Shown here: positions 8,239 through 63,873 of the stretch, in pieces
How positions within the stretch are numbered: the stretch's first letter is position 1
How the letters are laid out: each line of letters begins with the position of its first letter
Source: Candidatus Omnitrophota bacterium
GTDB taxonomy: Bacteria > Omnitrophota > Omnitrophia > Omnitrophales > Aquincolibacteriaceae
Direction: 5' to 3'
Assembly: GCA_016930235.1 (NCBI GenBank)
Contig: JAFGHI010000042.1
Span: 2,550 to 66,549, forward strand
DNA: 64,000 nucleotides
Translations under genes and position numbers: made by a program
The notes under the pieces: model-generated
Seen by the model: only the letters and a program-made list of their open reading frames with translations
Told to the model about the DNA's origin: nothing
Database searches by the model: none

Positions 8239-8262
8239 TCTATTTAACATAAGGGTTGAATT

Positions 8263-8985: not shown

Positions 8986-9003
8986 AGGTAGGGGAAGAAG
9001 AGT

Positions 9004-9549: not shown

Positions 9550-9570
9550 TGACATTGGAGCTAGGAAAAC

Positions 9571-11013: not shown

Positions 11014-11480
11014 ATGGAATCCCCAACAAAATTCTTTTGATTGGGTATGGCAATCCCGGACGGTTGGATGACGGGCTTGGTCCTGCGATCGCGGATGCCG
11101 TTGAAAAAATGGATTTGCCGGACGTTACAGTCGATTCTAATTATCAATTGACTGTGGAAGATGCCGCCAATCTGGCGACGCACGATGTCGTTATTTTTGC
11201 CGATGCGTCGGTGAAGGGGAAAGAACCGTTCTTTTTTAAAAAGATAGAACCCAAACCCGGCATGAATTTTAGTACGCATAGTATCGAGCCGGAAGGCGTT
11301 TTGGGATACGCCCATCAGCTGTTTGGGGCGAAAACGGTCGGATATACGTTAGGGATTCGGGGGTACCGTTTTAATGAGTTTGGTGAGGAGATTTCAGAGA
11401 AAGCGCTTAAAAATATGAAGCAGGCCCTGAAATTTCTCGAAGACGCAATCAAGGCAAAAGATTTTGTCGAGATCGAATAA
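11010..11480 (+). CDS. hoxW: Hydrogenase maturation endopeptidase (HoxW/HycI family)
   Basis: GYGNPGRLDDGLGPAIAD is characteristic of hydrogenase C-terminal maturation proteases. It overlaps the hoxH stop. Confidence 0.8.
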   Translation: MNGIPNKILLIGYGNPGRLDDGLGPAIADAVEKMDLPDVTVDSNYQLTVEDAANLATHDVVIFADASVKGKEPFFFKKIEPKPGMNFSTHSIEPEGVLGYAHQLFGAKTVGYTLGIRGYRFNEFGEEISEKALKNMKQALKFLEDAIKAKDFVEIE

Positions 11481-11518
11481 GATAATTTAAGAAGAGCATC
11501 GTTCAGAAGGAGTCAGAG

Positions 11519-11893
11519 ATGAAAGACGGCAAATATGTCATATTGACGATTGATGATGATCGGGAATTTCTTCAAACAGTCCGAATCGTTTTAGAAGCAA
11601 AAGGTTATGTCATTGAAGAGGCTCAAAGTGCTGAAGAAGGTTTAAAACGTTATAAAACAGTCCAGCCGGATCTTATCCTTGTGGATCTCATGATGGAAGA
11701 AGTTGACGCCGGTGCCAATTTTGTTAAGGAACTAAAATTGATGGGAAATAAGGCCCCGATTTATCTCCTCAGCGGGGCAGGTGACAGTATGTCATCGAGT
11801 ACCGATTACACGCAGCTAGGCTTTAGCGGTGTATTCCAAAAACCTATCAGTCCCGATAGACTTTTGGGAGTTATAAAGGCAAAACTTACATAA
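11519..11893 (+). CDS. Stand-alone response regulator receiver domain
   Basis: ILTIDDDREF...DLILVDLMMEE...YLLSGAG: a REC fold with no output domain. Confidence 0.75.
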   Translation: MKDGKYVILTIDDDREFLQTVRIVLEAKGYVIEEAQSAEEGLKRYKTVQPDLILVDLMMEEVDAGANFVKELKLMGNKAPIYLLSGAGDSMSSSTDYTQLGFSGVFQKPISPDRLLGVIKAKLT

Positions 11894-11989
11894 CCTAATT
11901 AGAATGAACAAGTTAGATTATAATAATTAGGTCCCTACCAGGATTATAAACAAGCCTATATATAGAAGAGAAATATTGCGGAGATATAA

Positions 11990-12069
11990 TGTGAATATAT
12001 TCACATATACTATTGATATATTCACAATAAATGCTATTATATTTATAGATAATGTGAAAGGAATCACAA
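11990..12069 (+). promoter_or_regulatory. Rex operator cluster upstream of rex paralog 2
   Basis: TGTGAATATATTCACA at 11990-12005 matches the Rex box core TGTGAA-n4-TTCACA. TTGATATATTCACAA at 12013-12027 is half-site-like, and TGTGAAAGGAATCACA lies at 12054-12069. A TTGATA-17-ATTATA promoter-like pair is embedded. Confidence 0.5.
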
Positions 12070-12070
12070 T

Positions 12071-12712
12071 ATGAAAAAGGCCAATAAAATCTTAGTGACG
12101 CGGCTTTACCGGTACCGGGATGCGATTTACCGCATGAAATATATGGGGCTTGTGAAGGTCTTTTCGGAAAACATTGCAGATGCCGTTGGCGTGACTTCTT
12201 CCCAAGTTCGGAAAGATTTTTCACTTTTTAAATTAAGTGGGAATAAGCGTGGCGGATACGTTATTGATGATTTGCTGAAAAAGATGAATGAGAGCCTTGG
12301 GAAAAACAGGACTCAGGATGTGATTATTGTGGGTTGCGGGCATATCGGAACGGCACTGAAGCTTTACAAGGGATTTGAGAAAAAGGGGATCAGGATTGTT
12401 GCCGGTTTTGACATCGATGAATCCAAAGTGACAAGAGACGCTAAGGTCCCGATCTTGCCATTTCAGGAGCTGAGTCAATTTATCAAGACGAAGAAAATAA
12501 AAATAGGTATTCTCGCTGTTCCCGAAACGGCCGCTCAACAAGTCTTAGATCAAATGGTTCAGGCGGGGATCGAAGGGATTTTGAATTTTGCGCCTATGCG
12601 GTTAAGCCATCAAGAGAATGTTGTTGTGAATAATGTGAATTTGGGTTTGGAGCTCGAGACGATCATATATTTCGTGGGCGAAATAGAAAAGAAGCAATAC
12701 GAGGAAAAGTGA
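12071..12712 (+). CDS. rex: Redox-sensing transcriptional repressor Rex (paralog 2)
   Basis: FSENIADAVGVTSSQVRKDFSLFKLSGNKRGGYVI winged helix, then a Rossmann domain IIVGCGHIGTAL. Confidence 0.8.
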   Translation: MKKANKILVTRLYRYRDAIYRMKYMGLVKVFSENIADAVGVTSSQVRKDFSLFKLSGNKRGGYVIDDLLKKMNESLGKNRTQDVIIVGCGHIGTALKLYKGFEKKGIRIVAGFDIDESKVTRDAKVPILPFQELSQFIKTKKIKIGILAVPETAAQQVLDQMVQAGIEGILNFAPMRLSHQENVVVNNVNLGLELETIIYFVGEIEKKQYEEK

Positions 12713-14553
12713 TGAAATTGAGTTCGAGGATCCTTATTTCATTTATGGCAACGATTGGTTTCTTGGGCGGCGCGACAGCTTTTTTCAGTTATCACCTGGT
12801 TGAGAAATATGTTGTCCAAAGAACCCAAGATCAAGTGATCGCGGATTTGAGGACGGTCGATGCTATGATCAAAAACCCGTTAGAAAGAATGGAAACGATG
12901 TTTCTCATGGTGCGGCCGGATGAAGACCTGGATCAATTCAAAAAAATGGCGGGTTTAGATTATCTCTATCTTGTGAAGGCTGAAGAACTCCCCCGGGTGA
13001 GGAGCGGAATAGTGAATAGAGTTATGCGGACAAAAACACAAACCGGAGGATACCGTCTGGTTGAAAAAGACGAGTTAATTGATTTCGGAAGTAAATATCA
13101 AGAACAGGCCTTGATTCCGGTTCGCATGACACCGAAAGCCACGAAGTCGGAAAAGACGGTTTTAGACAGTGCTATGAGCATGGAATATGCGAAGCCTTTT
13201 TTCAATGATTCGGGAGAAGTGGAATCCGTTTTATATGGTGGGAAAATCATGAATCGTTATTTCCAGTTTATTGATGATATCGTGGGTGCTGTTTTTGAAA
13301 ATAAACTTTATGATAATAAGCCTTTAGGGACGCTTACGATATTCTTGGACGATGTGCGTATTGCGACCAATGTTCTGGATGACCGCGGCCAGAGGGCTAT
13401 TGGGACAAGAGTTTCCAAAGAGGTTTATGAGCGCGTCGTGGTTCAAGGGGGGAGTTGGTTTGACCGCGCGTTTGTTGTGACGGACTGGTATTTAACGGCT
13501 TACGAGCCCATTCGGGATATAGACGGCCAGATCATCGGCATTTTGTATGTCGGTATTCTGGAGAAGCCCTTCAAGGATTTACAGGCACGCACCTTCTTTG
13601 CGTTTGCGATGATGATCCTTGCGGCTTCTGTGATGGCTATCTTCATTTCGTGGTTTCTCTCCCGGTCTTTGGCCAAACCGATGACCGAAATGGTCAAGAC
13701 GATTCGAAAGATCGAGAACGGAGAATTGGAGAGTCAAGTTGAGGTCAAGACAAGTTTGAAAGAAATCAATGAATTGACCCGTTCGTTCAATGAAATGGCG
13801 GGAAAGTTGGCGGAAAGGGAAAGGAGTTTGGCCGTCTCGAATGAAAAGCTTACGTCTTTAAATAAACGGTATCTTGACATGATTGGTTTTGTTTCGCATG
13901 AACTGTCAGGGATTTTGAATACGGCCGTCTTCAGTGTTTATTCACTGTCGCAGGAGATGTTAGGGGAAATTAATCTTAAGCAAAAACAAGTCCTGGACAC
14001 TCTGGCAAAGAGTTTGGACTATTTATCAACGATGGTCAGAAATTTCTTGAGTTTAAGCCGCGTAGAAAAGGGCGAATTAGCGCTCCAGAAAACCCCGGTC
14101 TATCTCAATGAAAATATTGTCGAGGAATCGCTTGCGGCGTTTAAAGCGCGTGTTTCTGAGCGGGGCATGAAAATCGTCAATCAGATTCCGGCTCAATTGC
14201 AAGTGCTTGCGGATCCGGACATGATCAAAATTGTTGTCAATAATCTCGTAACGAATGCCATCAAGTACGGGGTCGAAAAGGGTTCGATCATCATGAGTGC
14301 AAGGGTCCAGGAGGAGAGGGTCGAGGTGGAATTTTATAATGACGGTGAGCCCATCACCGATGATGAGCGCGAGAAATTATTCAAAAGGTTTTCGCGGTTG
14401 CAGAATGTCCAAGGCAAGGGCAAAGGAACGGGCTTGGGGCTTTTCATCACAAAAGAAATTATTGAAGCTCATCGGGGCCGGATATGGCTTGAAACCAAAC
14501 CATTTGGGAATGCCTTTGTTTTTACCTTGGAAAAAGGAAAGATGAATTCATGA
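12709..14553 (+). CDS. Sensor histidine kinase (N-terminal TM plus a large periplasmic sensor domain, HAMP, HisKA, HATPase_c)
   Basis: H-box FVSHELSGILN, N-box NLVTNAIKYG, G-boxes GTGLGLFI; two TM segments flank a roughly 270-aa extracytoplasmic domain. Confidence 0.8.
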   Translation: MMKLSSRILISFMATIGFLGGATAFFSYHLVEKYVVQRTQDQVIADLRTVDAMIKNPLERMETMFLMVRPDEDLDQFKKMAGLDYLYLVKAEELPRVRSGIVNRVMRTKTQTGGYRLVEKDELIDFGSKYQEQALIPVRMTPKATKSEKTVLDSAMSMEYAKPFFNDSGEVESVLYGGKIMNRYFQFIDDIVGAVFENKLYDNKPLGTLTIFLDDVRIATNVLDDRGQRAIGTRVSKEVYERVVVQGGSWFDRAFVVTDWYLTAYEPIRDIDGQIIGILYVGILEKPFKDLQARTFFAFAMMILAASVMAIFISWFLSRSLAKPMTEMVKTIRKIENGELESQVEVKTSLKEINELTRSFNEMAGKLAERERSLAVSNEKLTSLNKRYLDMIGFVSHELSGILNTAVFSVYSLSQEMLGEINLKQKQVLDTLAKSLDYLSTMVRNFLSLSRVEKGELALQKTPVYLNENIVEESLAAFKARVSERGMKIVNQIPAQLQVLADPDMIKIVVNNLVTNAIKYGVEKGSIIMSARVQEERVEVEFYNDGEPITDDEREKLFKRFSRLQNVQGKGKGTGLGLFITKEIIEAHRGRIWLETKPFGNAFVFTLEKGKMNS

Positions 14554-33228: not shown

Positions 33229-34293
33229 ATGGAGAAAAAACGAAATGAAGAAAAAAGAAACAAGAAATTATTTATCGAGGATTTAGAAATTAGGAGAAGC
33301 ACATCGCCATTATTTTTTGCGGCTTTTACAGCTGATATCCAAAATGACGGTACTGAACCGACGAATCCGGAAAAACCTGTGGATGCGCAACCGGACAGCC
33401 AGTCAGCCCAAGAAATTCAGGTTCATCCCGTCACGAATTTACATGAGCCAAATACGATTGTTCCTGCTCGGGTAACTCCAGATGAAATGTGGACTTCGGA
33501 TTTCACTCGAATGGGCGAAGATATGGTTATTTCAACGATGGCAGTGGGCGAAGAAGGTGCTTCGGAGTATAATCCCATTCGATTTGTTTCATCTTCGTCC
33601 TCGCCTGCACCGGTGCCGACGCCCGCGCCTTCTCCGTCGCCTTCGATTGAAGCCAGCCCAACTCCGCATGCGAGTCCGTCGCCGGCTTACAATCCGGCAG
33701 GCATTTCTCCGGGGGAAACGGCGGGGAATGAAACAATGCCTGTTTCGAATGTGCACGGTCCAAGTCCTGAAGCCGCTTCCGAGCCGGTGCTGAGTCAAGA
33801 AATTCAGGTTAATTCCGTACCGGCCACGCCTGAAACGAGCACGGCTGTTCCAACGCGGGTTACTCCCGAAGAAACGTGGACATCGGATTTCACTCGAATG
33901 GGCGAAGAGATGGTTATTTCAACGATGATGGTCGGTGAAGAAGGTACTTCGGAGCTACACCCCATTCGATATTTTTCCAGTCCGTCTTCACCTGCGCCGG
34001 TGCCGACGCCTGCGCCTTCGCCGTCACCTTCGCTGGAAGCGAGTCCTGCTCCTCATCCAAGTCCTGAAGCCGCTTCCGAACCGGTGCCAAGTCAAGAGAT
34101 TCAGGTTAATCCCGTCGCGCCTGCGCCGGTGCCGACGCCTGCGCCTTCGCCGTCACCGAATCCAAGTCCTAGCCCCCTGTCATCGTCTGCTTATGTATCA
34201 CCAGGACAGTTGACGACCATGATGCTGGGTGAAGAAGCTGAGATTGAACTTACGACCATGATGTTAGGGGAAGAAGGCGAAACGGTCGTTTAA
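33229..34293 (+). CDS. Putative multi-core graspetide (microviridin-like) precursor peptide/protein with Pro/Ser-rich spacers
   Basis: Leader-like SPLFFAAF (nt 33307-33327) resembles the microviridin PFFARFL motif. Two near-identical roughly 120-aa modules contain WTSDFTRMGE(D/E)MVISTM(A/M)VGEEG. The C-terminus has tandem TTMMLGEEAEIEL and TTMMLGEEGETVV units. PAPVPTPAPSPSPS linkers are repeated three times at both DNA and protein level. Confidence 0.5.
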   Translation: MEKKRNEEKRNKKLFIEDLEIRRSTSPLFFAAFTADIQNDGTEPTNPEKPVDAQPDSQSAQEIQVHPVTNLHEPNTIVPARVTPDEMWTSDFTRMGEDMVISTMAVGEEGASEYNPIRFVSSSSSPAPVPTPAPSPSPSIEASPTPHASPSPAYNPAGISPGETAGNETMPVSNVHGPSPEAASEPVLSQEIQVNSVPATPETSTAVPTRVTPEETWTSDFTRMGEEMVISTMMVGEEGTSELHPIRYFSSPSSPAPVPTPAPSPSPSLEASPAPHPSPEAASEPVPSQEIQVNPVAPAPVPTPAPSPSPNPSPSPLSSSAYVSPGQLTTMMLGEEAEIELTTMMLGEEGETVV

Positions 34294-34357
34294 TTTGTGT
34301 GGATTTTAGACTATCTATCAATCTTAGGTGACATCTGACCGTTAATTTAAACAGATT

Positions 34358-35308
34358 ATGACGAATTCGAAACCTAAGATCCTCATTGTCGGTGCTCCAA
34401 ACGAACGCCATAGCCATTACATGGCGCAGCGTATTGCGCAAAAAGGCGGTTCTCCCCTAATTTTGGATACACTCAATTTTCCCGCCAAGGTCAAACTTTC
34501 GCTTAGGAATGAAAAGATATTTTATCAAGGGGAACCGCTTGATGAAATAGCAGGGTGTTATCTGAGAACCGTGGTTTTTTTTCTGCCGCCTTATGATTTG
34601 GAAGATAAAAGAAATGCCGAAGGAAAACTCGAAACCGACAATTGGTACCGGGATTACAGGGCCGAACGGGAACGCCAATCGCATTTGGGATCTTTGCTGC
34701 GAGTACTCTTTTTTCGGAATATCCCGGTGGTGAATCCCGTGTCGGCGTTTACGCTTCATTATTTAAAACCCCTGCAGCTTGAGATGTTGAGGAGAGAAGG
34801 GATCCGGGTTCCCGAAACGCTTGTAACGAACGATCCCAAAAAACTTCTGGAATTCAAACAAGAAGTCGGAAAGGTTATTTTTAAACCGGTGGCTGGAGGG
34901 GCCGAATGCCGGGAACTTACCGAAGAGCATTTGAAACCTGAGAAACTCGAAAGATTGCAGAACGCACCGGTTCTCTTTCAGGAGCTCATACCGGGTGAAA
35001 ATGTCCGCGTTTATATTTTGGAGTCGAGAATCCTTGTTGCTGTCATCATCAAATCCGAGACCCTCGATTATCGGGGGCATGAGCAGGGATTCCAAATCAT
35101 CAATCTTCCTCCTGAGGTTGCCCAAATATGCATCAAGGCGATGAGAATTTGCGGGCTTAAGTTTACGGGGATGGATCTTCGTTTGACTCCCGGCGGGGAA
35201 TTCGTGGTCATCGAATGCAATCCTTCGGCGATGTTTATGGGGATCGAGGAAATCCTAAAAGTCGATATCAGCGGGGCCCTTGCCGATTTCCTTATGGGAC
35301 GCTCATGA
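34358..35308 (+). CDS. ATP-grasp peptide maturase (MdnC/RimK-like, graspetide ligase)
   Basis: The N-terminal pre-ATP-grasp region ILIVGAPNERHSH...LDTLNFPAKVKLSL mirrors the MdnC N-terminus. The ATP-grasp core ends in VVIECNPSAMFMGIEE. It lies directly downstream of the precursor-like ORF. Confidence 0.7.
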   Translation: MTNSKPKILIVGAPNERHSHYMAQRIAQKGGSPLILDTLNFPAKVKLSLRNEKIFYQGEPLDEIAGCYLRTVVFFLPPYDLEDKRNAEGKLETDNWYRDYRAERERQSHLGSLLRVLFFRNIPVVNPVSAFTLHYLKPLQLEMLRREGIRVPETLVTNDPKKLLEFKQEVGKVIFKPVAGGAECRELTEEHLKPEKLERLQNAPVLFQELIPGENVRVYILESRILVAVIIKSETLDYRGHEQGFQIINLPPEVAQICIKAMRICGLKFTGMDLRLTPGGEFVVIECNPSAMFMGIEEILKVDISGALADFLMGRS

Positions 35309-36201
35309 ATCCTCTTGCCTTCCAGTATGGGCGCTTGGGGCGGGGCAAATTGTGGGTTGAAGGGCCGGACAGGCGTTTTACGCAAATCGATGATAAAACG
35401 CTGCATATCATCCTTGATCTCAATGATCGTTTTGACTGGGAGCTGATTCAAAAAAGGCACGGTATTTCAAAACAGGAATTGGAAGATCTTGAAAAATGGA
35501 TACGATCCAAAGATTTGGAAGCTGCGGAACCAAAGCATGGCAGGATAGAACGTCTCGACCGATTCCGAACCCCTTTGGATTTAAGCGGTTTCCTTTATTT
35601 TTTAGCTTTGATGATCGTGATTCAAGCCTTGTATTGGGAAGCTTTGGCGCGACATGTTTCGCTTACAGCCCCCTCCCAAATTTTTGTTATTTTTCCAATT
35701 GCCTGTGCCGGCATCATCTTTCATGAGCTGGGGCATTTTTTGGCTTTAAGGCCCTATACTCGGCCAAGGCTCGGCATGACATGGATTTTTTTTCTGCCGG
35801 CTGTCTTTGTGCAGTCGGATGTTCTCTGGAAATTATCCCGTTCGAGGCGCGTATTGGTGAACTTGATGGGAATTTTTGCCGATTCCATTTTCAACTGTCT
35901 AGCCATTTTGTGGGTTTTCCTCAATCCGTCCTTCGAGCCTTGGGTCACACCACTTTTGGTGACCCAGTACATCCGGTGGCTGATTGTTTTGAATCCTTTG
36001 TTTCAAGGCGACGGCTACTGGCTTTTCTCGGATTTGTTCGGGGTGGTAAATTTAAAAACCGAGGGCAGCCGAGATTTTAAACGAAGAAAGGTTAATGTTT
36101 TTTTCTTTTACCATCTGGCTCGAATGGTTTTTACGATTGTGATCCTTTTGAGTCTTGCACTTATGATTTATCATCTCTTAGAGGAGGTTCTATTCCGATG
36201 A
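35305..36201 (+). CDS. M50/site-2-protease-family intramembrane zinc metalloprotease (putative leader peptidase)
   Basis: HELGH sits in a TM helix and NPLFQGDG (NPxxxxDG) further on, the two signature S2P motifs. A roughly 90-aa soluble N-terminal domain is present. Start ATG overlaps the ATP-grasp stop (ATGA). Confidence 0.55.
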   Translation: MNPLAFQYGRLGRGKLWVEGPDRRFTQIDDKTLHIILDLNDRFDWELIQKRHGISKQELEDLEKWIRSKDLEAAEPKHGRIERLDRFRTPLDLSGFLYFLALMIVIQALYWEALARHVSLTAPSQIFVIFPIACAGIIFHELGHFLALRPYTRPRLGMTWIFFLPAVFVQSDVLWKLSRSRRVLVNLMGIFADSIFNCLAILWVFLNPSFEPWVTPLLVTQYIRWLIVLNPLFQGDGYWLFSDLFGVVNLKTEGSRDFKRRKVNVFFFYHLARMVFTIVILLSLALMIYHLLEEVLFR

Positions 36202-41445: not shown

Positions 41446-41654
41446 TAGAAGTTACCAGCCACTTGATTAATGCGATTACCTCAAATGCAAAGCCGTAAAG
41501 ATGATCGCTGGCTATTCCATATGATCGCGATTGATCGCATATGCTTTCGGATACTAAGAGATCATCGTTTTCGCCTCGACGAATAGCAGCTTGCCGAGAT
41601 AAGTAACATAAACCACATCAAAGCACTTATTTAATATATTTAGTAATTAGCATC

Positions 41655-41683
41655 TTGACAATATGTATGGATTTGTGTACTTT
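41655..41683 (+). promoter_or_regulatory. Sigma70-like promoter candidate (TTGACA-17-TACTTT) upstream of the giant gene
   Basis: A perfect -35 hexamer TTGACA at 41655-41660 followed 17 nt later by TACTTT, in an AT-rich leader. Confidence 0.3.
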
Positions 41684-41739
41684 TAATATACTGTTATTAA
41701 GTATTAAAAATTTAAGGATTTTAAAGGAGACGCCGGGCC

Positions 41740-44700
41740 ATGAAAATTGACAATCTAACGAATCGAGCGACAAGTATCTTAACGATACTTGTTTTTTTAT
41801 TTTCGCAGGTGATAGTTTTTCCCACGCAGTCGATCGCTGCTGATCCCGTTCAGCAAATCCAGGATCGACAGGCGGAAGTTTCTTTGGAAGTCAAAGAAAC
41901 AGATCATTCCGATATTAATCCTGAAGAAAGATATCTCGATAGGAGTCTGGCCACTTTCTTTGAGCCTGTTGCCATTACAAAAGTAGCGGCGGTACGAACG
42001 CCGGCGTCACCTAAACCCCACGCATCGCCGGTACCTAATGCGTCTCCGAGCCCAACGAGTTATGCGTCACCAAGCCCAAGAAGTTCTTCGTCCCCGTCGC
42101 CGGTTCAAGTGCAAAGCGTTTTTAGCGGAGTCCTCGTAAAAGTTCCTGATGATCAGCCGAGTTTTCTGATGCGGTCGGTCTACCGTTTGCAAATTGACGC
42201 GAACCGTTCGATTTTGGTGGATGGCGCCGATGAAGTGGGTCAAAAATTACTGCCTCTCTATGAAGGCCAAGAAGTTGAATTACGCGGTGAATTTTTCGAA
42301 CTGGAAGGGATGCAGATTTTAAAGGTCACCCATATTAACGGGGAACCTGTCGAAGATTTACTCAATGAACTGCCTGATCCCACGAAGTATCCCACGGAAT
42401 CTGAGATGGAGGCGATACAGGGGCTTGGATCGGATATCGTTAAATTTGACAAAGCGACGGTTCGTGAGGACGGGATGAGGGAATATCAATTTTCTTCGTC
42501 ACCCAATGCGGCCGGAAGATTCCTTCAAATCGAAGTGACTTATGATCCTTGCGGCGGGATGCTTAAATGCCTGGCGCCGATCAGGATCAAGACCTTTCAA
42601 ATTGTTTTTGATCCGGGGCCGGTTTCGAGCGGAGAAATAATCCAGCTGCCGCCTCACGCGTTTCTTGATGTTTCTAAAGTTGAAGGTGTTATTCATCTTC
42701 CCGCGGGCGCGAAGTTCACGCTGGGGTTCCCCAGTGACAACTGGCTCCTATTTGATCTGGAGACGCAGATTACCGAACAGCCCGTCCGCGAAGTCGTTAT
42801 CCAGGATTTAGTCCAGACTTTTGGATTGGATGAATCCGGGATTCGATCGATGCTGGAACGGGGGGATATGAGTATCACGGTGGATCTAGAAAATCAAAAA
42901 GTTAAAGTCCATATGCCCGGTCATTTTAATTATACGCCCGTGGCGGCGGTGCCTTTCGGCGGGGTTTACCAGCCTAATCTTTTAGGTGATGAATACATCA
43001 GCTCTGAGATTACCTATCAATATGAAACGACGACGTCTGAGGATAAGATTCATCTTGTTGCGGCGGAGTTTCGACATAGCGGCAAGGTCTTCCGGTTAAG
43101 TTATGCGACCCCAGCGACCTCTCCGGCATCCGCAGTTCTCAATAACAAATTGTATTCAGTGACCGTTTCCGAAGAGGTTGAGACGCCATGTCTTATGGCG
43201 CCGTGTCCCGTTCAGGAGAAGTTGATTAAGCGGGTGCGATATATTTACTATGCGGATTCTGTGAACCCTGCTATGGCCGGGATCCAATATCTAGGTGAGA
43301 GCAGTGTGGCGTACCGGACGGTGACTTTTGTGGAACGCGAGACGGGTTTATTTGTGGATACCGTTGCGGATTTTGATTCCCAGGATAATTTGATCGCTGC
43401 GAATAAATTTTATTATACGGAGAATGCGGTTTGTGAGGCGATTTCGCCCTGCCACATCGAAAAGATTGAGCGCACGAAACCCCAAGGTGAGAGCAAAACC
43501 CAACGTGTGCTTGTTTCCGTCATTTCGGATTTTGAATATATCTTGTTGATAGGCGGGAAGTTTCCGATGGTGGCGACGATCACGCGCGCGGACGGTGTTT
43601 CTAAAGAGGTGAGATTCGGAAGCGCGGTTGAAGGAATTTTGGAGGAGGCCCTCGAATTCGAAAGCGAATATGATCCAGAACGCGCTGCATTAGAAGAATT
43701 TATTGCGGAATGGAGCCGGTTAAAAGCTGCCTACATGGATTACTTGCTGGAGCAGTTAGAGCCGATTCGGGATATGGGAGCGGCTATGACGGAGACAGAA
43801 CTCGAAGTTTTGCTTGAGGCATCGGATTTAAATGAAGCCCAAAGGGAGCGGTTGAGGCGGTTACATTTTGCTTTGACTTATATGCTTCATACGGTGGATT
43901 GGGTGTTTGATCAGTCATTAACACTTGTAGAACTGCCGGATTGGTATGCTGAATTTGCGGAGGCGGAAGGTTTTTCTTCCGTCGGGCTATATGTTTTCGG
44001 GGATATCGATACCTCCGGCATGTCCTTGGAGGAATTGCGTGAGACGGTCAATGAGATTAGGGATTATACGGCAGGCGAAGATTTGGAGTCATTCTTTGCC
44101 GGAATAGCAGCCGGGGTACCGGAATCCGCTGCGAGTATTATAGCGAGAACGAATCAGATCAACGCCGAGCTGGAAGCGCTGCGGGCGAATGAAAGAATTA
44201 GCCTTCTTAAAGAAAGGGCGCAGGCGCTCTTGGCGAGTAAGACGGAGGAAGTTAATAATTACATTCAGACGCTTCAAGAGCGTATTGATGTTCTCGAGGG
44301 GCTATTAAGCGAGGCGGATGAAGCCAATCTTCAGATGGAAGAATTGTATGCGCTTTTGATGGAGGAACGTGAGCGGCTTGTCAATTTATCAATGCAATAT
44401 CCGGAGGTTGATTTGAGTGATTTGGGCGGGAGCAATGAGATCATTCTCGAGGGGCTGAACGGATCGGGTGTCCAGGACCGGGATTATTACACGGCGTGGA
44501 CGATTTGGCGCGAGAACGTAGCTCGGCTTATCAGCCGTTATGAAGAGGGTATCGCAGTAAATCAAGAGGGCCTGGCTGAATTGGAAGCGCTTGCCAGTCA
44601 AATTTCGGCGTCTAATGATCCATCCGAAATCAAGCGCCTCTTGGATGAGATGATGGACAAGGCCGAAGACTTGCCGGTACCGATGGTTTTTCATCCCATC

Positions 44701-47700
44701 AATGTTTCCGAACCGGACGCCCAGATTGTCCTTAACCGCATGAACGGCATGCTGAACGCGATGCGGCGTAATTATCAAATTGCCAATCAAAGGATTGCCC
44801 AGGCCGACAGGCAGGCGCTCATCAGCTATCTTTCAGGAGTTGTCTCTGAACAGGCGGAGTTTATCCGTGAGGCCTTGGAAAAATATAAGGACGTCCAGGG
44901 GATTGAGATTGCGCTGAGTGCGGATGATTTGACGGCACTTATCGAGAAACTTGGTCTATCGGAAGAAGAGGCCGCGCGGCTTATGAATTTGTATAAGTAT
45001 TTTCTTGTGATGCTGGGTGTTCGTGCGGATGCGGTCCCATCGCCCTCATCTTCATCGAGCCCGAGTCCGGCTGCATATGTTTCAGCCAGCCCGCAGCCCT
45101 ATGCTTCGCCATCACCTTCTCCAGCCTCGTGGTCAATCAATAACCTCGTGACCGACGGAATCTTCCTGCCTCCGAATGCGAACCTTAATTCGAGGACCAT
45201 TGCCGCTCTGAAGGATTTTATTGCTTCCGAAGAGCTTTTAGGGTTTCTCCTGATGAAGAGGATCAATATACCGCCGGTCCAATCGTTATCTTTGGACGTT
45301 TTAAAGGACGCAGTTGAAAAAGTTAAGGAACTTATAGGCGATGACCCTGCCCAGTTTTTCGAGGAGGCCATGGAAGCTGTGGATCAGTACGTCGAAGGCG
45401 CCAAAGCCGATCTTGCCAAGATCAATACGGAATTTGAATCGCTTGAGGTTGATCCTGAACAGCAACAGTGGGAAACCAAGTGGACGGAGATTGAGGAGGC
45501 ACGTGTCGATCATATGACCGAGGTTTCCGAAGCCTTTGATGTTTATTTAAGGGAGTATCTTGATTCGATTGACGGCATGATTGATTCAGTACAAGGAATC
45601 TTGATAAATCTTCAAGACCAGGACTACACCGGTTTGGGTTTGGAGGATCTTGCCTTGTTTTTGAAATCGTACCAAAGCGCAGTGTCTTCTTTAGGTGTGG
45701 ATTTAAACTCTTTTCTCAGAAATGAAAGCATTCCAAACCTTCAGGAATTTTTCGAAGGTTTGAGGGAACAGTTCCTCAGTGATATGGATGCGGCTTTAGG
45801 CGAGGTTGATCAATTCATTAGCATATTCAGGGAAAGAGATCCAAGTCCCGAGGTCCTCGAAAGGATCGAGAGTCTTGAGAAGGTTAAGAAGTGGCTGCTC
45901 GAATTAAAGCCGGTTTATGTGAAGATGCTCGATGATTCCATCCAAATGGGGGTTGTTTTCGAAAATCAGCTGGGGAACCTGAATGGTATTTTGGGCCGCA
46001 TCGAAGAAGGGCGCCAGCAGTTGCTCCAAGAATTTGATGCTATTGATGAGCAATATGAAAGAGCGGTTCAAAATTTGGCGATGGAGCATTGCGGCCAAAC
46101 AGAGGACCCGGCTTCGGATGCGACGTGTGTATTCGAAAACCAGTATGCCTATTCTCAATGGAGGTATGGGATTTCGCCTGTGCGGTATGAGGAATGGAAA
46201 ACTTGCTGGAAGGATACCTGGGAAAGTGGCGTGACGAATTCCTCGGATATTGCAGCTGTATGTGGAGAATACGCAAAAGAGGAGGCGTGGGAAGCTGTCT
46301 ATGATGGGCCAGCAGGTTCAACGAGCGGATCGCTCGAACCGGGGCATTACCCTGCAGCAACCGATAGTTTTTTTGAAGTGCCTTATGCAGTCGCTTTGCG
46401 TGATTTGGAGATTGAGCGTGATCTTCAAAAGAAAAAAGCGAAAGAGGTTTTTTATGCGCTTGCCGAAGTTGAGATCATGAAATTAAAAGGGATCCGCGCT
46501 GCTGTTATAGGACAGATGGATGATTTATTGTCCATGCGTGTTGAGGTCATGAATGAATACCACCGGATTTGGCAGGAGGCAAGATCTCTGTCCGGCGGCA
46601 TTTTTAATTATCGCAATGAAGATGGTTTGGATTTTTATTCAAGATCAATAAGGGAAGTTTTAGGTGAAGGCACATGGTATTACAAAGTTTTTGATGACGA
46701 TGCAGTGTCGGGTAAAGTCAGAGGTGCGCTTAAGAACTCTTTGGATGCAGTTAAACGAGCAGCTGAAGAGGCCGGAGGAACTTTCTTTTCGGAATTGAGT
46801 CATGTCCAATTTGGCTTAAGGGATGCTTTAAAGAAGAAGGTTGAGATTGAATACCAATGGGCAGTGCGTGACGCACGCGAAGAGTATTATGGATCTTTCA
46901 AGGATGTTATGGCGATTGCTAAACCCATTGTTGAGGACTGGTACAACTATTGCCATGTGCCTACATCTTCAGATTGGCAGCAGCCCGCAGAATGTGGGGC
47001 CAATATGTTAGCGTCTTCTCAATATGGAATTGAACCCTCAAGAGAAGCATGGTTAAACCACCTTGTGTCGGCGAGTCGATTTCAGATGGTGCCAGTCGAA
47101 TATCAGGAGATATGCGACACGAATTTGAATGGTGAAGAATATTGTTACGAGACTGTAGCACGGTATGAAGCCATGGACCTCCAATCTCAGAATGAGGCCA
47201 TCTTAGATGAAGTTAGATGGTGGCATTCTACGGGATCCCCAGATGGTTATGAGGAATACAAAAATCTGTATGAAAAGTGGTATGCCGGTGTCGCTTCTTC
47301 TGATCTTTTTTATCGGCAACAAGTGGCAGAAGCTCTGTTGAAATTAGGGGAGTTTGATGAATTTGAAGCGAATATTTCTGAATTTTGCAGTCAAATTGGC
47401 GGTGGATATCAAGTCCTCGCATTTACGAATTGCGCGGATTTTGGCTACGGAGACGATTTTGTCGGCAGTCTTCAAGAAGAACGTGATCAAGCCTTGGCTC
47501 TAATTGATGAACAGTTTAGCGATCTTGGTATAGCGGTCTCAATTAATCCCAGTGACGCTCCTTTCATTATATTGGGCCCTAATCATTATATTGGTCATGC
47601 CGTGCTTGGCGGTGAGGAACTCGAGCGTCGTTGGGAAGAACTTTTTGGCGCTATGGATGAGGCATGGGATTCATTTGAAAAATCAAAGCAAGCTTCTGAT

Positions 47701-47736
47701 GAGAAATTTTATCAAATGTACGAAGGGCTGATCTAA
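41740..47736 (+). CDS. Giant (1998 aa) secreted protein with N-terminal signal peptide, Pro/Ser-rich linkers, long coiled-coil middle region and Cys/Trp-rich C-terminal domain; function unknown
   Basis: Uninterrupted 5997-nt ORF. Signal peptide MKIDNLTNRATSILTILVFLFSQVIVFPTQSIA|ADP. Linkers PASPKPHASPVPNASPSPTSYASPSP and PSPSSSSSPSPAAYVSASPQPYASPSPSP. Heptad-rich segments run from about 43.6 to 46.1 kb. Confidence 0.75.
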   Translation: MKIDNLTNRATSILTILVFLFSQVIVFPTQSIAADPVQQIQDRQAEVSLEVKETDHSDINPEERYLDRSLATFFEPVAITKVAAVRTPASPKPHASPVPNASPSPTSYASPSPRSSSSPSPVQVQSVFSGVLVKVPDDQPSFLMRSVYRLQIDANRSILVDGADEVGQKLLPLYEGQEVELRGEFFELEGMQILKVTHINGEPVEDLLNELPDPTKYPTESEMEAIQGLGSDIVKFDKATVREDGMREYQFSSSPNAAGRFLQIEVTYDPCGGMLKCLAPIRIKTFQIVFDPGPVSSGEIIQLPPHAFLDVSKVEGVIHLPAGAKFTLGFPSDNWLLFDLETQITEQPVREVVIQDLVQTFGLDESGIRSMLERGDMSITVDLENQKVKVHMPGHFNYTPVAAVPFGGVYQPNLLGDEYISSEITYQYETTTSEDKIHLVAAEFRHSGKVFRLSYATPATSPASAVLNNKLYSVTVSEEVETPCLMAPCPVQEKLIKRVRYIYYADSVNPAMAGIQYLGESSVAYRTVTFVERETGLFVDTVADFDSQDNLIAANKFYYTENAVCEAISPCHIEKIERTKPQGESKTQRVLVSVISDFEYILLIGGKFPMVATITRADGVSKEVRFGSAVEGILEEALEFESEYDPERAALEEFIAEWSRLKAAYMDYLLEQLEPIRDMGAAMTETELEVLLEASDLNEAQRERLRRLHFALTYMLHTVDWVFDQSLTLVELPDWYAEFAEAEGFSSVGLYVFGDIDTSGMSLEELRETVNEIRDYTAGEDLESFFAGIAAGVPESAASIIARTNQINAELEALRANERISLLKERAQALLASKTEEVNNYIQTLQERIDVLEGLLSEADEANLQMEELYALLMEERERLVNLSMQYPEVDLSDLGGSNEIILEGLNGSGVQDRDYYTAWTIWRENVARLISRYEEGIAVNQEGLAELEALASQISASNDPSEIKRLLDEMMDKAEDLPVPMVFHPINVSEPDAQIVLNRMNGMLNAMRRNYQIANQRIAQADRQALISYLSGVVSEQAEFIREALEKYKDVQGIEIALSADDLTALIEKLGLSEEEAARLMNLYKYFLVMLGVRADAVPSPSSSSSPSPAAYVSASPQPYASPSPSPASWSINNLVTDGIFLPPNANLNSRTIAALKDFIASEELLGFLLMKRINIPPVQSLSLDVLKDAVEKVKELIGDDPAQFFEEAMEAVDQYVEGAKADLAKINTEFESLEVDPEQQQWETKWTEIEEARVDHMTEVSEAFDVYLREYLDSIDGMIDSVQGILINLQDQDYTGLGLEDLALFLKSYQSAVSSLGVDLNSFLRNESIPNLQEFFEGLREQFLSDMDAALGEVDQFISIFRERDPSPEVLERIESLEKVKKWLLELKPVYVKMLDDSIQMGVVFENQLGNLNGILGRIEEGRQQLLQEFDAIDEQYERAVQNLAMEHCGQTEDPASDATCVFENQYAYSQWRYGISPVRYEEWKTCWKDTWESGVTNSSDIAAVCGEYAKEEAWEAVYDGPAGSTSGSLEPGHYPAATDSFFEVPYAVALRDLEIERDLQKKKAKEVFYALAEVEIMKLKGIRAAVIGQMDDLLSMRVEVMNEYHRIWQEARSLSGGIFNYRNEDGLDFYSRSIREVLGEGTWYYKVFDDDAVSGKVRGALKNSLDAVKRAAEEAGGTFFSELSHVQFGLRDALKKKVEIEYQWAVRDAREEYYGSFKDVMAIAKPIVEDWYNYCHVPTSSDWQQPAECGANMLASSQYGIEPSREAWLNHLVSASRFQMVPVEYQEICDTNLNGEEYCYETVARYEAMDLQSQNEAILDEVRWWHSTGSPDGYEEYKNLYEKWYAGVASSDLFYRQQVAEALLKLGEFDEFEANISEFCSQIGGGYQVLAFTNCADFGYGDDFVGSLQEERDQALALIDEQFSDLGIAVSINPSDAPFIILGPNHYIGHAVLGGEELERRWEELFGAMDEAWDSFEKSKQASDEKFYQMYEGLI

Positions 47737-47827
47737 AGCGAACGATAACGGAGCTATTAAGGCAGCGTTATTCGAATTAATTGAATTAACAATTTTGAAT
47801 AATTATTTTACAGATTCCAAACCCCAA

Positions 47828-48650
47828 CCCCCGGAATCGGTGTGAATTTGAGTTATAACCGATTCCGGGGTTCCCTCCTTTATTTAGACTACAGACCGCA
47901 GACTAACACCGAATCCCAATGATTCGGTGCGACTTCACTGATATTGATATATCAGTACCGCTCGTGGAAACCTTGATGGTTTCCTACGATCTTGCGGCAG
48001 AACCTGGACGGTTCTGTCCGAGTCGAGACCAGAGAACAGAAGCTAGATTCTGGATGCTGGATACTAGATAGAAGTGATGAATTTATAGTGCGTTTTATAA
48101 ATCCAACTTCGGGAATCTTACGCGGAGTCCTCACATTCTATATTTCCAAACGTTTGGAGATATGCACCCGTTCTGAATTGTCCCCACGTGGGGACAATTT
48201 ACGCAGACAAATTTGAGGTGATGCAAATCGCTTCGAATTTATTCGGTGCCGAATAAATCTGATAATTCAAATTGGTCCGGCGCCGGACCAATTGGCGTAA
48301 ATTGAATTTTCCCCGCGTGGGGAAAATTGGTGAGAACCGAGTTTTCCCACCGGTGGGAAAACTCACCAGGCTTGAATTCTGCCGACGTCGGCAGAATTTA
48401 ACGATTTTAAGTTTTCCGAACGTTCGGAAAACTCAGTGGTTATAACTAGCCGAAGCTGGATACTGGATGCTAGATGTTCGCCCCCTCACCCTGCCCTCTC
48501 CCCACTGGGGAGAGGGTTGGGGTGAGGGGTTGTTGTTTCAGTTTACCCGCCTGCGTGGCAGGCGGGGATGAGGGGGAAATATTCTTATAACACCCTCAAC
48601 CTAGCCCCTGCCCGACTGCATGGCAGGCGGGCTCTCCCTTTCAGGGAGAG
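47828..48650. repeat. Array of 18 or more distinct palindromic hairpin units (REP/BIME-like cluster) in a coding-free 1.2-kb region
   Basis: Perfect 24-bp palindromes include aattgtccccacgtggggacaatt (48177-48200), aattggtccggcgccggaccaatt (48270-48293), aattctgccgacgtcggcagaatt (48375-48398) and agttttccgaacgttcggaaaact (48410-48433). A 26-bp palindrome is gagttttcccaccggtgggaaaactc (48339-48364). Further hairpins lie at 47828-47870, 47907-47929, 47937-47956, 47966-47984, 47998-48016, 48140-48163, 48237-48258 and 48305-48328. GC-rich hairpins lie at 48482-48529, 48546-48566, 48611-48631 and 48632-48650. Confidence 0.8.
48043..48070. repeat. Direct repeat ctggatRctggatRctagat, copy 1, flanking the hairpin array
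   Basis: ctagattctggatgctggatactagata is repeated as ctagccgaagctggatactggatgctagatg at 48447-48477 and as a degenerate inverted copy at 48733-48775. Confidence 0.55.
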
Positions 48651-48913
48651 GGAAATACAACGGTTAATTATCAACGCCACTCGTTAATGGTGCATTATGT
48701 TTTTGACTTGCTGCCTGGAGCCTGCAGCTTTGATCTAGCTTCCAGCCTCTAGCCTCAGCTTTTATCCAGCATCTGATTTACGTGATCACTAATGCTATCT
48801 ATTGCTATATAGAGAATTTATTTTATAGCAGGTATTGAAAAATGATCGAACGGCGGGTATGGTTTAAGAAGATAGTTTAGGGAACGTTTTGATTCACTAA
48901 TTAGTTCATATGA

Positions 48914-49267
48914 ATGGAGATAGGACTTATGAAAAGAGATAGATTAGTCAGTTGGCTTCATTGTGTGGGTTTTGTTTTGTTTTTTGCCATTGCCCAATGG
49001 TTTTTTGTCCTGCCGGTGATCTCGGCAGTCAATCCCGCGGAAAGTGTCTACGCGACGAACCGTCTTTCGAAGGATAATACCGCCGGTATGAAAGACAACA
49101 TTTCGGTGCCTGTCGTGCAGCCGGTCGAGAAGCTTGAGATCGGCGGGTTCATTGCCGGTGAGGGAATGGGTTTTGGTGCAGTCTCCTATAAGGCGCAGGA
49201 TCTTGTCGGCGGGCATTTGGCCTCGAGCCGGAATCCCGAAGAAATCCTGGAACTTGCCGGAACATAA
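48914..49267 (+). CDS. Hypothetical small membrane-anchored protein
   Basis: One N-terminal TM helix and no recognisable family. The start is uncertain, with an alternative ATG at 48929. Confidence 0.3.
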   Translation: MEIGLMKRDRLVSWLHCVGFVLFFAIAQWFFVLPVISAVNPAESVYATNRLSKDNTAGMKDNISVPVVQPVEKLEIGGFIAGEGMGFGAVSYKAQDLVGGHLASSRNPEEILELAGT

Positions 49268-49319: not shown

Positions 49320-49580
49320 TTGCCGATAATCCATAACCGGATGAAAACTCTTATTTTCAACACAATCGGTTTTTTTTCGGCCCTGAGCTTGATCATGGTC
49401 CTGGTTTATTTCGGGCCGGACTTAATCCAAGGAGATCTCACTTCGATGAAGGATTTCCTCGAAAAATACCGGGGCATCGAACCCTTCGTCATATTTATTG
49501 TCCCTGTCGTTATCATTGTGGGGAGTGCCTGGATCTGGAAGATGGCCGTCCATTTAACCCGTAAGAACCCTTCATCCTAA
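49320..49580 (+). CDS. Hypothetical small two-TM membrane protein
   Basis: 86-aa ORF with two hydrophobic helices and no recognisable family. Confidence 0.3.
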   Translation: MPIIHNRMKTLIFNTIGFFSALSLIMVLVYFGPDLIQGDLTSMKDFLEKYRGIEPFVIFIVPVVIIVGSAWIWKMAVHLTRKNPSS

Positions 49581-51565: not shown

Positions 51566-51686
51566 CGGCGGCGGCCAGTGGCGGTCGAGGGCTGGACGGT
51601 ACCCAACCCGCGTGGTATGATACTCCGAAGTCAATAATCCAAGATTAATTCCCTTTCGAGTGGAGGCGCTTTTTAGCGATCAAACG

Positions 51687-52247
51687 ATGACAGACGAGAA
51701 TATCCAGATTGAAACCGAATTTACGCCGAACCCCAAATCACTGAAATTCAATGCCAACAGAGTGATCATCGAGAAGGGGACTTTCTCTTATTCGAAATCG
51801 GCGGAGGCCGAGAAATCGATTTTGGCCAAGAAGTTGTTCCAAGTGAAAGGTGTTGAAGGGGTCTTGATCGGCAAAGATTTTGTGACCATTACGCGAGGCG
51901 CGAATGTCGGGACGTGGGCGGCCATTATCCCGGCGGTCAGCGATACCTTGAAGGATCACCTGTTATCGGGAGAGCCGGCCGTGTTCTCGGAAGCTTCGAA
52001 TCAAGCGAGCGGCAGCGAATCGGAAGTAGAAAAAAGGATCCAACAGTTTTTGGATGAAAAAATAAGGCCGGCTTTGGCCCGTGATGGCGGGGATGTGACT
52101 TTCGAGAGTTACAAAGACGGAGTCGTCGCGCTTCAGTTGCGGGGGGCGTGTTCTCATTGTCCCAGTGCGACCATGACGCTCAAAATGGGGGTTGAAAGAC
52201 TTTTACGCGAAGCCATTCCCGAAGTCAAAGAGGTCGTGCAGGTTTAA
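51687..52247 (+). CDS. nfu: Fe-S cluster scaffold/carrier protein Nfu (Nfu_N plus NifU C-terminal domain)
   Basis: Nfu_N region IETEFTPNPKSLKF...VTITR and NifU-like GACSHCPSATMT (CxxC). Start at ATG 51687; the ORF track's 51660 is an upstream in-frame Met. Confidence 0.8.
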   Translation: MTDENIQIETEFTPNPKSLKFNANRVIIEKGTFSYSKSAEAEKSILAKKLFQVKGVEGVLIGKDFVTITRGANVGTWAAIIPAVSDTLKDHLLSGEPAVFSEASNQASGSESEVEKRIQQFLDEKIRPALARDGGDVTFESYKDGVVALQLRGACSHCPSATMTLKMGVERLLREAIPEVKEVVQV

Positions 52248-63027: not shown

Positions 63028-63873
63028 TTAAGTCAGAGAGGCGGAAATCTTTTTTATCTTTGATTTTCTGGGTTTCAAGGTCTCTTCTTCTTCGCCTGAC
63101 GCACCATCCAAAATGCCGCGCTCGGAAGCTTCAATAAAAGAAATCAAGTGTTTGACTTCGGCACATTTCAAGTTTTTTTTCATTTCTTCGACGGCTTGCG
63201 TCACATTAAGTCCTGAACGGTAGAGCAGTTTGTAAGCTTGCTTGATTTCGTCACGGATAGGGGGCGGAAAACCTGCCCGTCTTAGACCCACGACATTCAT
63301 CCCAAGAACGACACCGGGCCGCCCGCCGCAGGTCAAGAAAGGAGGAATGTCTTTATTGCAGGCTGAAAGCGCACTGACCATTGAAAGCCGGCCTATGCGT
63401 GTGAATTGGTGAAATCCGGTCATGCCTGAAAGGAAGGCACTGTCCTCGACCATGCAGTGTCCGGTCAGAGAAGCTTGATTGACCATGATGATATTGTTGC
63501 CAAGCGTACAGTTGTGGGCAACATGGCAATAAGCCATTAAGAAATTCGAATCCCCTAAAACGGTGGATGTTCCGGGTTTGGTTCCCCGATGGATCGTGAC
63601 AAATTCCCGTATTTTATTGTGATGGCCGATCTTGGTATAAGTGGGTTCTCCCTTATAGGCCGTATCTTGGGGCGTATGGCCGATCACGGTTCTCATGTGG
63701 ATCTCATTGTAGTTGCCGATTTCCGTGCCGACGCAAATATAAGCCCCGGCCATAATTGTGTTATGGGAGCCGATCTTGACCCCGTCTTCGATGATGACAT
63801 AAGGGCCAATTTTATTGTTGACGCCCAGCTCGGCATTTTTTCCGATAATTGCTGTAGGATGAATCTCTGACAT
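63028..63873 (-). CDS. lpxA: Acyl-[ACP]--UDP-N-acetylglucosamine O-acyltransferase
   Basis: MSEIHPTAIIG start, left-handed beta-helix hexapeptide repeats and a C-terminal helical domain. Confidence 0.85.
   Translation of the reverse strand: MSEIHPTAIIGKNAELGVNNKIGPYVIIEDGVKIGSHNTIMAGAYICVGTEIGNYNEIHMRTVIGHTPQDTAYKGEPTYTKIGHHNKIREFVTIHRGTKPGTSTVLGDSNFLMAYCHVAHNCTLGNNIIMVNQASLTGHCMVEDSAFLSGMTGFHQFTRIGRLSMVSALSACNKDIPPFLTCGGRPGVVLGMNVVGLRRAGFPPPIRDEIKQAYKLLYRSGLNVTQAVEEMKKNLKCAEVKHLISFIEASERGILDGASGEEEETLKPRKSKIKKISASLT

Follow-up and report, generated by a model that had tools for sequence, protein, structure and literature searches.

Large, poorly annotated exported proteins, some of them dockerin-bearing, have been reported from Omnitrophota and proposed as adhesins (Seymour et al. 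2023, PMC10066038; West-Roberts et al. 2023, bioRxiv 10.1101/2023.11.21.568195). Members of this phylum are uncultured and often host-dependent, and their large exported proteins are suspected to take part in attachment or predation. In the literature on the phylum, the term "giant" denotes open reading frames (ORFs) of >20 kb, or products of 10,000-30,000 aa and above, which typically carry many transmembrane (TM) helices and SecA-like, C39, dockerin, or TSP3 domains, and for which adhesion or cell-wall degradation has been proposed (PMC10066038; bioRxiv 10.1101/2023.11.21.568195). The present analysis concerns a gene at positions 41740-47736 (+ strand) of a 64,000-nucleotide stretch of contig JAFGHI010000042.1 (hereafter the window), which encodes a protein of 1998 amino acids (aa). 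An earlier interpretation made from the letters alone (the sequence-only reading) had described the product as a giant secreted coiled-coil surface protein of a candidate phylum. The attribution to a candidate phylum holds, the contig being part of an Omnitrophota metagenome-assembled genome (MAG); the word "giant" does not, since the two studies cited above apply it to far longer genes, and one of 6 kb is merely large. Overall, the earlier description proved largely accurate, and its label as a giant coiled-coil surface protein partly right.

The 1998-aa protein resembles the Omnitrophota giants in its phylum, in being an exported, lineage-specific, and poorly annotated mosaic, and in having adhesion as a proposed role; a further likeness comes through one of its relatives, P0003, which carries dockerin type I repeats. 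It differs from them in being 10 to 40 times shorter, in lacking the further TM helices and the SecA DEAD-like, C39, TSP3, discoidin, and dockerin domains of the Archaeovorin/dockerin-type giants, and in having no type II secretion system (T2SS) genes nearby within the window. Because every defining feature fails (length, TM helices, SecA, and dockerin), the protein, judged from its predicted features, is not a member of the described giant-protein classes. It is most like the cellulosome-style scaffoldins and dockerin enzymes, whose modules are connected by Pro/Thr/Ser linkers and with which it shares a signal peptide, proline/serine (P/S)-rich linkers, and independently folding modules that are shuffled among relatives, the relatives in turn bearing dockerin, Fn3, and esterase-like modules. 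Unlike those proteins, it has no detectable cohesin, dockerin, carbohydrate-binding module, or catalytic module, and its conserved modules, B and M, lie outside any described family. Loose D-x-[DN]-x-[DNS]-G strings occur in it only twice (at residues 755 and 1793), and neither PF00404 nor cohesin gave a match at E <= 0.1. The protein is best described as a large modular exported protein built from undescribed modules.

As to its role, we tentatively prefer, with somewhat less than even confidence, the view that the exported protein has no catalytic activity and acts not as an enzyme but as a modular scaffold or adhesin, at the cell surface or in the extracellular matrix; this function is inferred, in the case of B and M from the company that they keep in other proteins.

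Modular Architecture and Shared Modules

As delimited by homology, composition, and structure prediction, the protein is a mosaic that comprises a signal peptide, a first P/S linker, a domain N1, a domain B, two tandem helical units, each consisting of a module M and, after it, a lineage-specific helical segment, and a C-terminal domain. The parts are as follows.

41740-41838, + strand: Sec-type signal peptide, aa 1-33 (n-region MKIDNLTNR, hydrophobic core, S-I-A/A-D cleavage motif)
41998-42102, + strand: P/S-rich linker 1, aa 87-121 (TPASPKPHASPVPNASPSPTSYASPSPRSSSSPSP), read in the translation and holding a 24-nt tandem repeat
42118-42783, + strand: domain N1, aa 127-348, mixed beta/alpha with Cys271/Cys277; strands appear in a low-confidence model
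42784-43674, + strand: domain B, aa 349-645, beta-rich, ~300 aa, with Cys pairs 484/489 and 565/571
43675-44208, + strand: module M copy A, aa 646-823, helical; mapped by BLASTP and hidden Markov model (HMM), alignment A1
44209-44784, + strand: helical segment X_A, aa 824-1015; relatives outside this protein not found
44785-45486, + strand: module M copy B, aa 1016-1249; HMM match split into 1012-1092 and 1147-1249 by linker 2
45016-45177, + strand: P/S-rich linker 2, aa ~1093-1146, inserted in the variable loop of module M copy B
45487-46074, + strand: helical segment X_B, aa 1250-1445, with 22% identity to X_A (alignment A5)
46075-47733, + strand: C-terminal domain, aa 1446-1998, 553 aa, predicted all-helical (low-confidence model)

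The whole protein matched no family in Pfam (E <= 0.1), NCBIfam, PADLOC, or PDB, and its sole match among 5.8 billion proteins in a word-indexed search was itself. Word-indexed sub-searches with aa 127-640 and aa 1421-1998 returned nothing and are weak negatives, because the parent protein itself went unfound. Neither the protein nor the A2 profile detected relatives in GTDB species-representative genomes, viral contigs yielded none, and a first metagenome scan with the whole protein as query gave no match.

Relatives were recovered by profile-based searching. With aa 800-1998 as query, an exhaustive HMMER search of 1.84 billion cluster representatives (library threshold E <= 1e-3) yielded two weak matches, P0002 (2085 aa) and P0003 (1935 aa), both at E ~1e-4 and both produced by the region of module M copy B; pairwise comparison confirmed them as genuine. 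The first, P0002, is a fragment of a longer protein, P0004 (4667 aa), and a profile-guided metagenome scan added a 2412-aa protein encoded in locus L006. Module M, of ~190 aa, occurs in two copies in the 1998-aa protein, one in P0002, and two in P0003. By BLASTP, copy A matches P0002 at 8e-12, P0003 at 1e-8, and the L006 protein at 1e-7, and copy B matches P0002 at 7e-13 and the L006 protein at 4e-12; pairwise E-values for the module range overall from 7e-13 to 2e-7, with 1e-8 and 2e-7 for the comparisons with P0003. Domain B is shared with the L006 protein (BLASTP E = 3e-15 over 340 columns; phmmer 1.2e-11 and 1.6e-4 for two regions), and both of its Cys pairs are kept in L006 copy 1 (alignment A3). 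Domain B members had no Pfam match even at E <= 10, and no Pfam or PDB counterpart was found for modules M and B or for the repeat H described below.

The relatives are themselves secreted mosaics. Dockerin-I stretches number five in P0003 (Pfam 3e-20). P0004 combines EF-hand/dockerin-like loops with six PAP_N/Fn3 domains and two HExxH motifs, and the L006 protein includes an esterase/PHB-depolymerase-like alpha/beta-hydrolase segment with a GLSNG motif, for which Pfam scores lie below gathering thresholds. All three begin with a signal-peptide-like segment followed by a Pro-rich stretch. The 1998-aa protein shows the same family traits, namely two M copies, a signal peptide with a Pro-rich stretch, and a length in the range of ~2-5 kaa (thousand aa). 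Since module order varies among the four proteins, they can be regarded as shuffled mosaics; no conserved gene neighborhood was found for the relatives, each of which stands alone amid housekeeping genes. The family probably extends beyond these four members, because the L006 relative, although present in the searched collection, fell below the E <= 1e-3 threshold. The earlier statement that such proteins are essentially uncharacterized is correct in that no known family could be assigned; as an implied claim of complete orphanhood it fails, B and M being shared with three secreted mosaics.

No relatives were detected for N1, X_A, X_B, or the C-terminal 553 aa, even in proteins that share B or M, and N1, which lies outside the part used as query in the exhaustive search, had no match in an iterated HMM search against the relatives. 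Several possible internal repeats were also examined and rejected as not significant against shuffles: the three N-terminal Cys motifs among themselves (z <= 0.4), N1 with the second half of the N-terminal region (z = 0.1), and the two C-terminal C-x11-13-C...YGI-P modules (z = 2.3).

A separate observation concerns the relatives alone. The L006 protein (7001-14239) contains six copies, and P0004 (L003 10001-24004) two, of a helical repeat of 188 aa that has not been described before and is here called H; the copies are 21-39% identical to the first. The 1998-aa protein has no significant hmmsearch match to H, and the notion that X_A and X_B are copies of it was rejected (hhalign probability 0.4%).

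Integrity of the Gene

A gene without family assignment in a MAG might be an artefact, that is, a spurious ORF, a pseudogene, or a chimeric assembly. Besides the MAG origin, two observations could be taken in this sense: the codon-usage fit is at the low end for the window, and GC content at third codon positions (GC3) shifts within the gene. We regard this explanation as extremely improbable. The frame is open throughout, with an ATG start and 1998 codons before the stop, a length not attainable by chance at the overall GC content of 48%, and the ORF list contains no comparable ORF on the opposite strand. The synonymous-codon fit to the window's other genes is frame-specific (0.041 in frame 0, -0.023 in +1, and -0.097 in +2), at the low end of the range of 0.03-0.13 for the window's genes. 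A ribosome-binding site and a signal peptide are present, and two internal modules are significantly homologous to independent metagenomic proteins. The reading frame runs uninterrupted across the compositional step, and a high GC3 is common to the neighboring genes on either side. Tandem repeats in the DNA are negligible, the sole case being a 24-nt unit repeated 2.3 times at 42038-42092 within linker 1. The signals at the start of the gene are located as follows.

41446-41739: AT-rich intergenic region of 294 nt, upstream of AAAGGAG and the ATG
41723-41729, + strand: Shine-Dalgarno-like AAAGGAG, 10 nt 5' of the ATG, read directly

A promoter scan of this intergenic region found no strong sigma-70 consensus on the + strand. 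The gene is real and intact. Its product is already in NCBI, without annotation, as MBN1688638.1 (JW893_06020), an identical hypothetical protein from a 100-kb contig of a Candidatus Omnitrophota MAG. The single 6-kb ORF of the sequence-only reading was accordingly confirmed, with no internal stop, and the splitting by frameshift or misassembly against which that reading had warned was not seen.

Export and Cellular Location

The N-terminus reads MKIDNLTNR-ATSILTILVFLFSQVIVFP-TQSIA|AD, with cleavage predicted after residue 33 from a motif recognized by eye. This Sec-type signal peptide has a long hydrophobic core of ~20 residues and is the protein's only segment with a 19-residue Kyte-Doolittle average >1.6, in agreement with the earlier call; the N-terminal signal segment, as read, contains no lipobox Cys. 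All 16 Cys residues fall into eight short-range pairs (271/277, 484/489, 565/571, 1451/1463, 1489/1508, 1738/1752, 1792/1802, and 1883/1898), of which three lie no further than residue 571 and five beyond residue 1450. The scattered Cys pairs ascribed earlier to an ~800-aa N-terminal region therefore do exist, as the three pairs up to residue 571, and only the length needs correction, the non-helical part spanning ~645 aa. P/S linkers are typical of extracellular multidomain proteins. Because of the signal peptide, the paired Cys, and these linkers, the product is almost certainly exported, as far as can be predicted.

The protein is also strongly acidic, with 338 D+E against 166 K+R residues, an isoelectric point (pI) of 4.41, and acidity in every domain. 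This is a trait of the 1998-aa protein and not of the proteome at large, because the DE/KR ratio is near 1 in most other ORFs of the window, and most neighbors are about neutral.

Where the exported protein resides is less certain. The host is diderm, as indicated by two lipid A genes in the window.

1091-2074: LpxL-like
63028-63873: LpxA-like

In such a cell the protein could be a periplasmic or envelope-spanning structural component, either resident in the periplasm or tethered by an uncleaved signal anchor, in which case the Pro/Ser stretch would be a spacer like that of TonB and the helical units would brace the envelope as a strut. The long hydrophobic core of the signal would suit an anchor, the periplasm is equally suited to disulfide formation, and searches for an outer-membrane translocation signal and for secretion-system genes nearby found neither. 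The signal peptide nevertheless has an AxA-type cleavage site, the dockerin, Fn3, and esterase-like modules of the relatives are typical of extracellular proteins, and a length of 1998 aa with two long flexible linkers would be unusual for a periplasmic resident; this location is therefore considered unlikely, though its probability is not negligible. The designation as a surface protein in the sequence-only reading thus stands as regards export, which the signal peptide, Cys pairs, and linkers support, whereas placement at the surface is inferred, with neither an anchor nor an outer-membrane export signal to be seen.

The Helical Region

Residues ~620-1500 had been read as one very long heptad-rich and acidic segment, and the whole as a coiled-coil protein. 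The acidity is evident, and single-sequence AlphaFold models of low confidence (predicted local distance difference test, pLDDT, of 42 and 40) place long helices of up to ~80 residues across aa 640-1998. Continuous heptads were not recovered. In a heptad register scan, only 2.8% of positions exceeded the 99th percentile of shuffled controls, and these lay in short runs, a weak enrichment, with periodicity somewhat above background at 600-1000 and 1200-1450. The two halves of the region align with each other (unit A vs unit B, Smith-Waterman z = 4.8 over shuffles), and aa 620-1500 is, by this comparison, better read as two diverged tandem units than as one continuous coiled coil. The coiled-coil label can be retained only to the extent that long helices are predicted.

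These data also bear on whether the protein is a canonical long coiled-coil fiber or an S-layer-type surface protein, which is what the earlier description would mean if taken literally. The predicted helices and the locally raised periodicity are in its favor, as is the acidic pI, which is frequent among S-layer proteins. Against it, the positions that pass the heptad scan are few and in short runs, the region is modular (M + X units) and broken by a P/S linker, Pfam revealed no SLH or S-layer family, and the Foldseek matches, obtained with a poor model, were no more than weak ones to antiparallel bundles (F-BAR-like); among the interpretations of its function weighed here, this is the least probable. 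The Foldseek comparison with PDB produced no match at E <= 0.001, and its generic long-helix and F-BAR-like matches were discarded. A PADLOC match of the helical region to LmuB was sub-threshold and treated as noise.

The C-Terminal Domain

The Cys/Trp-rich C-terminal domain of the earlier description was recovered together with its motifs, CGQTEDPASDATC (1451-1463), WKTCW (1486-1490), and CHVPTSSDWQQPAEC (1738-1752). It contains 10 Cys in five pairs, 16 Trp, and 34 Tyr, has a net charge of -51, and ends in a predicted helical ...QMYEGLI without a hydrophobic tail. GC3 is 0.51 over codons 1-1502 and 0.38 from ~codon 1502, with the domain differing from the rest of the gene at P = 5e-6 (chi-square), and GC3 of the flanking genes lies at 0.53-0.64. 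The break roughly coincides with the start of the C-terminal domain, which fits an acquisition of this domain by recombination; an assembly chimera is disfavored because the frame stays open over the break.

Such a pattern invites comparison with polymorphic toxin/Rhs systems, in which conserved internal modules are likewise followed by a unique C-terminal region of distinct nucleotide composition; in addition, Y-x-Y...G patterns of domain B resemble the YD repeats of RHS proteins, by visual impression only. On this basis, B and M would form a delivery scaffold and the C-terminal domain an exchangeable effector or toxin, acquired by recombination and aimed at other cells. The lack of relatives for the C-terminal 553 aa, even among B/M proteins, the sharp GC3 step, two small membrane-protein ORFs downstream (48914-49267 and 49320-49580), and the proposal that Omnitrophota are predators or parasites (PMC10066038) would all agree with this idea. 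We consider it improbable, because Pfam and PADLOC detected no toxin, RHS, or peptidase family, no pre-toxin motif was recognized, and a large, acidic, helical domain with five disulfide pairs is unlike typical toxins acting in the cytoplasm. The candidate "immunity" ORFs, moreover, lie 1.2 kb away, beyond a block of hairpins. The differences from the known systems are thus the absence of an RHS/YD Pfam match, of a toxin domain, and of an adjacent immunity gene.

The products of 48914-49267 (117 aa) and 49320-49580 (86 aa) have N-terminal hydrophobic segments and match no family, and both genes are situated between the hairpin block and the acyl-CoA dehydrogenase gene.

A Proposed Scaffold or Adhesin

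Besides the evidence for export, the protein-specific acidity, the compositional break, and the Omnitrophota literature cited above, the scaffold or adhesin reading draws on two sets of observations. No catalytic family or motif was found by Pfam, NCBIfam, PADLOC, or a scan for HExxH, which is absent, so that the sequence-only reading was right in recognizing no enzymatic motif; and the relatives that share B and M are secreted mosaics bearing dockerin, Fn3, and esterase-like modules. To judge from these accompanying domains, B and M may be the structural, non-catalytic part of all B/M proteins, forming an extended spacer or assembly scaffold beyond the cytoplasmic membrane that would hold a variable "business" domain off the cell. 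In the present protein, the variable part would be the aromatic-rich, disulfide-stapled C-terminal domain, which the compositional break suggests was swapped in via recombination and for which the most plausible role is ligand binding, to a polysaccharide, for example, or to the surface of another cell.

Several points weigh against this proposal. SLH, LPXTG, PEP-CTERM, the type IX secretion system C-terminal domain, an autotransporter barrel, dockerin, and cohesin were not found with Pfam, nor were an SLH domain, a C-terminal beta-barrel, RTX nonapeptides, or a sortase signal with Pfam and NCBIfam together. Secretion-system genes are absent from the window, and the periplasm is for that reason the default location in a diderm. 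Family searches recognized no binding domain, the function of B and M is deduced solely from their companion domains, and a cryptic enzyme may yet reside in N1 or the C-terminal domain. Domain and structure searches of the kind proposed along with the sequence-only reading helped little: the family searches gave no match, and the structure models were of such low confidence (pLDDT 40-42) that fold searches on them were uninformative. Consistent with that reading, no known adhesin, S-layer, or enzyme family was matched, a match to an adhesin or S-layer family having been sought in Pfam, NCBIfam, and PDB.

An extended form of the proposal, which we hold to be unlikely as a whole, is that M and B constitute a previously undescribed, rare family of portable extracellular scaffold/assembly modules of uncultured bacteria, in which M might be a new protein-protein docking unit operating beside dockerin-like Ca-binding repeats. 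The C-terminal domain would then be a recently exchanged, lineage-specific ligand- or host-binding tip with which this Omnitrophota cell makes contact with other cells or polymers.

Genomic Context

The gene is flanked by cydAB, a Kef-type antiporter gene, and genes for acyl-CoA dehydrogenase and NifU, and so, like its relatives, it stands alone amid housekeeping genes. Elsewhere in the window lie genes for hydrogenases, PFOR, Hyp/Hyd maturases, aromatic amino-acid synthesis, and lipid A acyltransferases. Rfam detected nothing real in or around the 1998-aa gene. One feature adjoins it directly.

47737-48913, no strand assigned: noncoding hairpin-rich block at the 3' end of the 1998-aa gene; a functional link is unproven

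The earlier description of this 1.2-kb downstream block was accurate. It holds 10 of the window's 15 perfect hairpins with stems >=9 bp (located at 47907-48566), as compared with 0-4 per window in shuffles. Six or seven perfect palindromes of 22-26 nt follow one another at ~35-nt spacing (48176, 48237, 48270, 48305, 48339, 48375, and 48410); they differ in sequence, yet each is fully self-complementary, its arms being rich in AT on the outside and in GC on the inside. Next come hairpins rich in GC, at 48482-48529 and 48546-48566. Neither an Rfam family nor a CRISPR-like constant repeat was found in the block.

Three further observations were made elsewhere in the window. First, a likely plesiocin-type (Group 2) graspetide cluster occupies 33229-36201. 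Its precursor ORF (33229-34293; 354 aa, pI 4.3, no Pfam match) begins MEKKRNEEKRNKKLFIEDLE, in which residues 14-19 reproduce exactly the conserved leader motif of plesiocin, LFIEDL, and carries four (S/T)TxxxxEE core motifs (STMAVGEE, STMMVGEE, and, at the C-terminus, TTMMLGEE twice). The precursor, which contains P/S-rich spacers and is internally duplicated, is of unusual length; its gene is followed by a RimK-like ATP-grasp gene (34358-35308) and by a gene for a polytopic membrane protein with HELGH (35215-36201). Second, two paralogous Rex-like regulators (Put_DNA-bind_N + CoA_binding), at 4544-5161 and 12071-12712, adjoin NADH-linked [NiFe]- and [FeFe]-hydrogenase gene sets, with HydEFG and HypDEF maturases and PFOR further downstream, making up a core region for anaerobic H2 cycling, in which cytochrome bd is encoded as well. 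Third, the NifU ORF at 51660-52247 has a GTG start and codes for 195 aa, as opposed to 186 aa in the NCBI entry from this MAG, MBN1688641.1, a minor difference in start-codon annotation.

Significance

The immediate significance of this protein is modest, since candidate phyla abound in secreted proteins with hardly any family and the analysis demonstrates no mechanism. The large exported proteins of Omnitrophota are almost wholly unannotated, and a dissected, tractable example of 2 kaa offers definite starting points for solving structures and assaying binding. Modules B and M are common to relatives that bear dockerin, Fn3, and esterase-like domains, while the C-terminal tip is unique to this protein and may have been exchanged.

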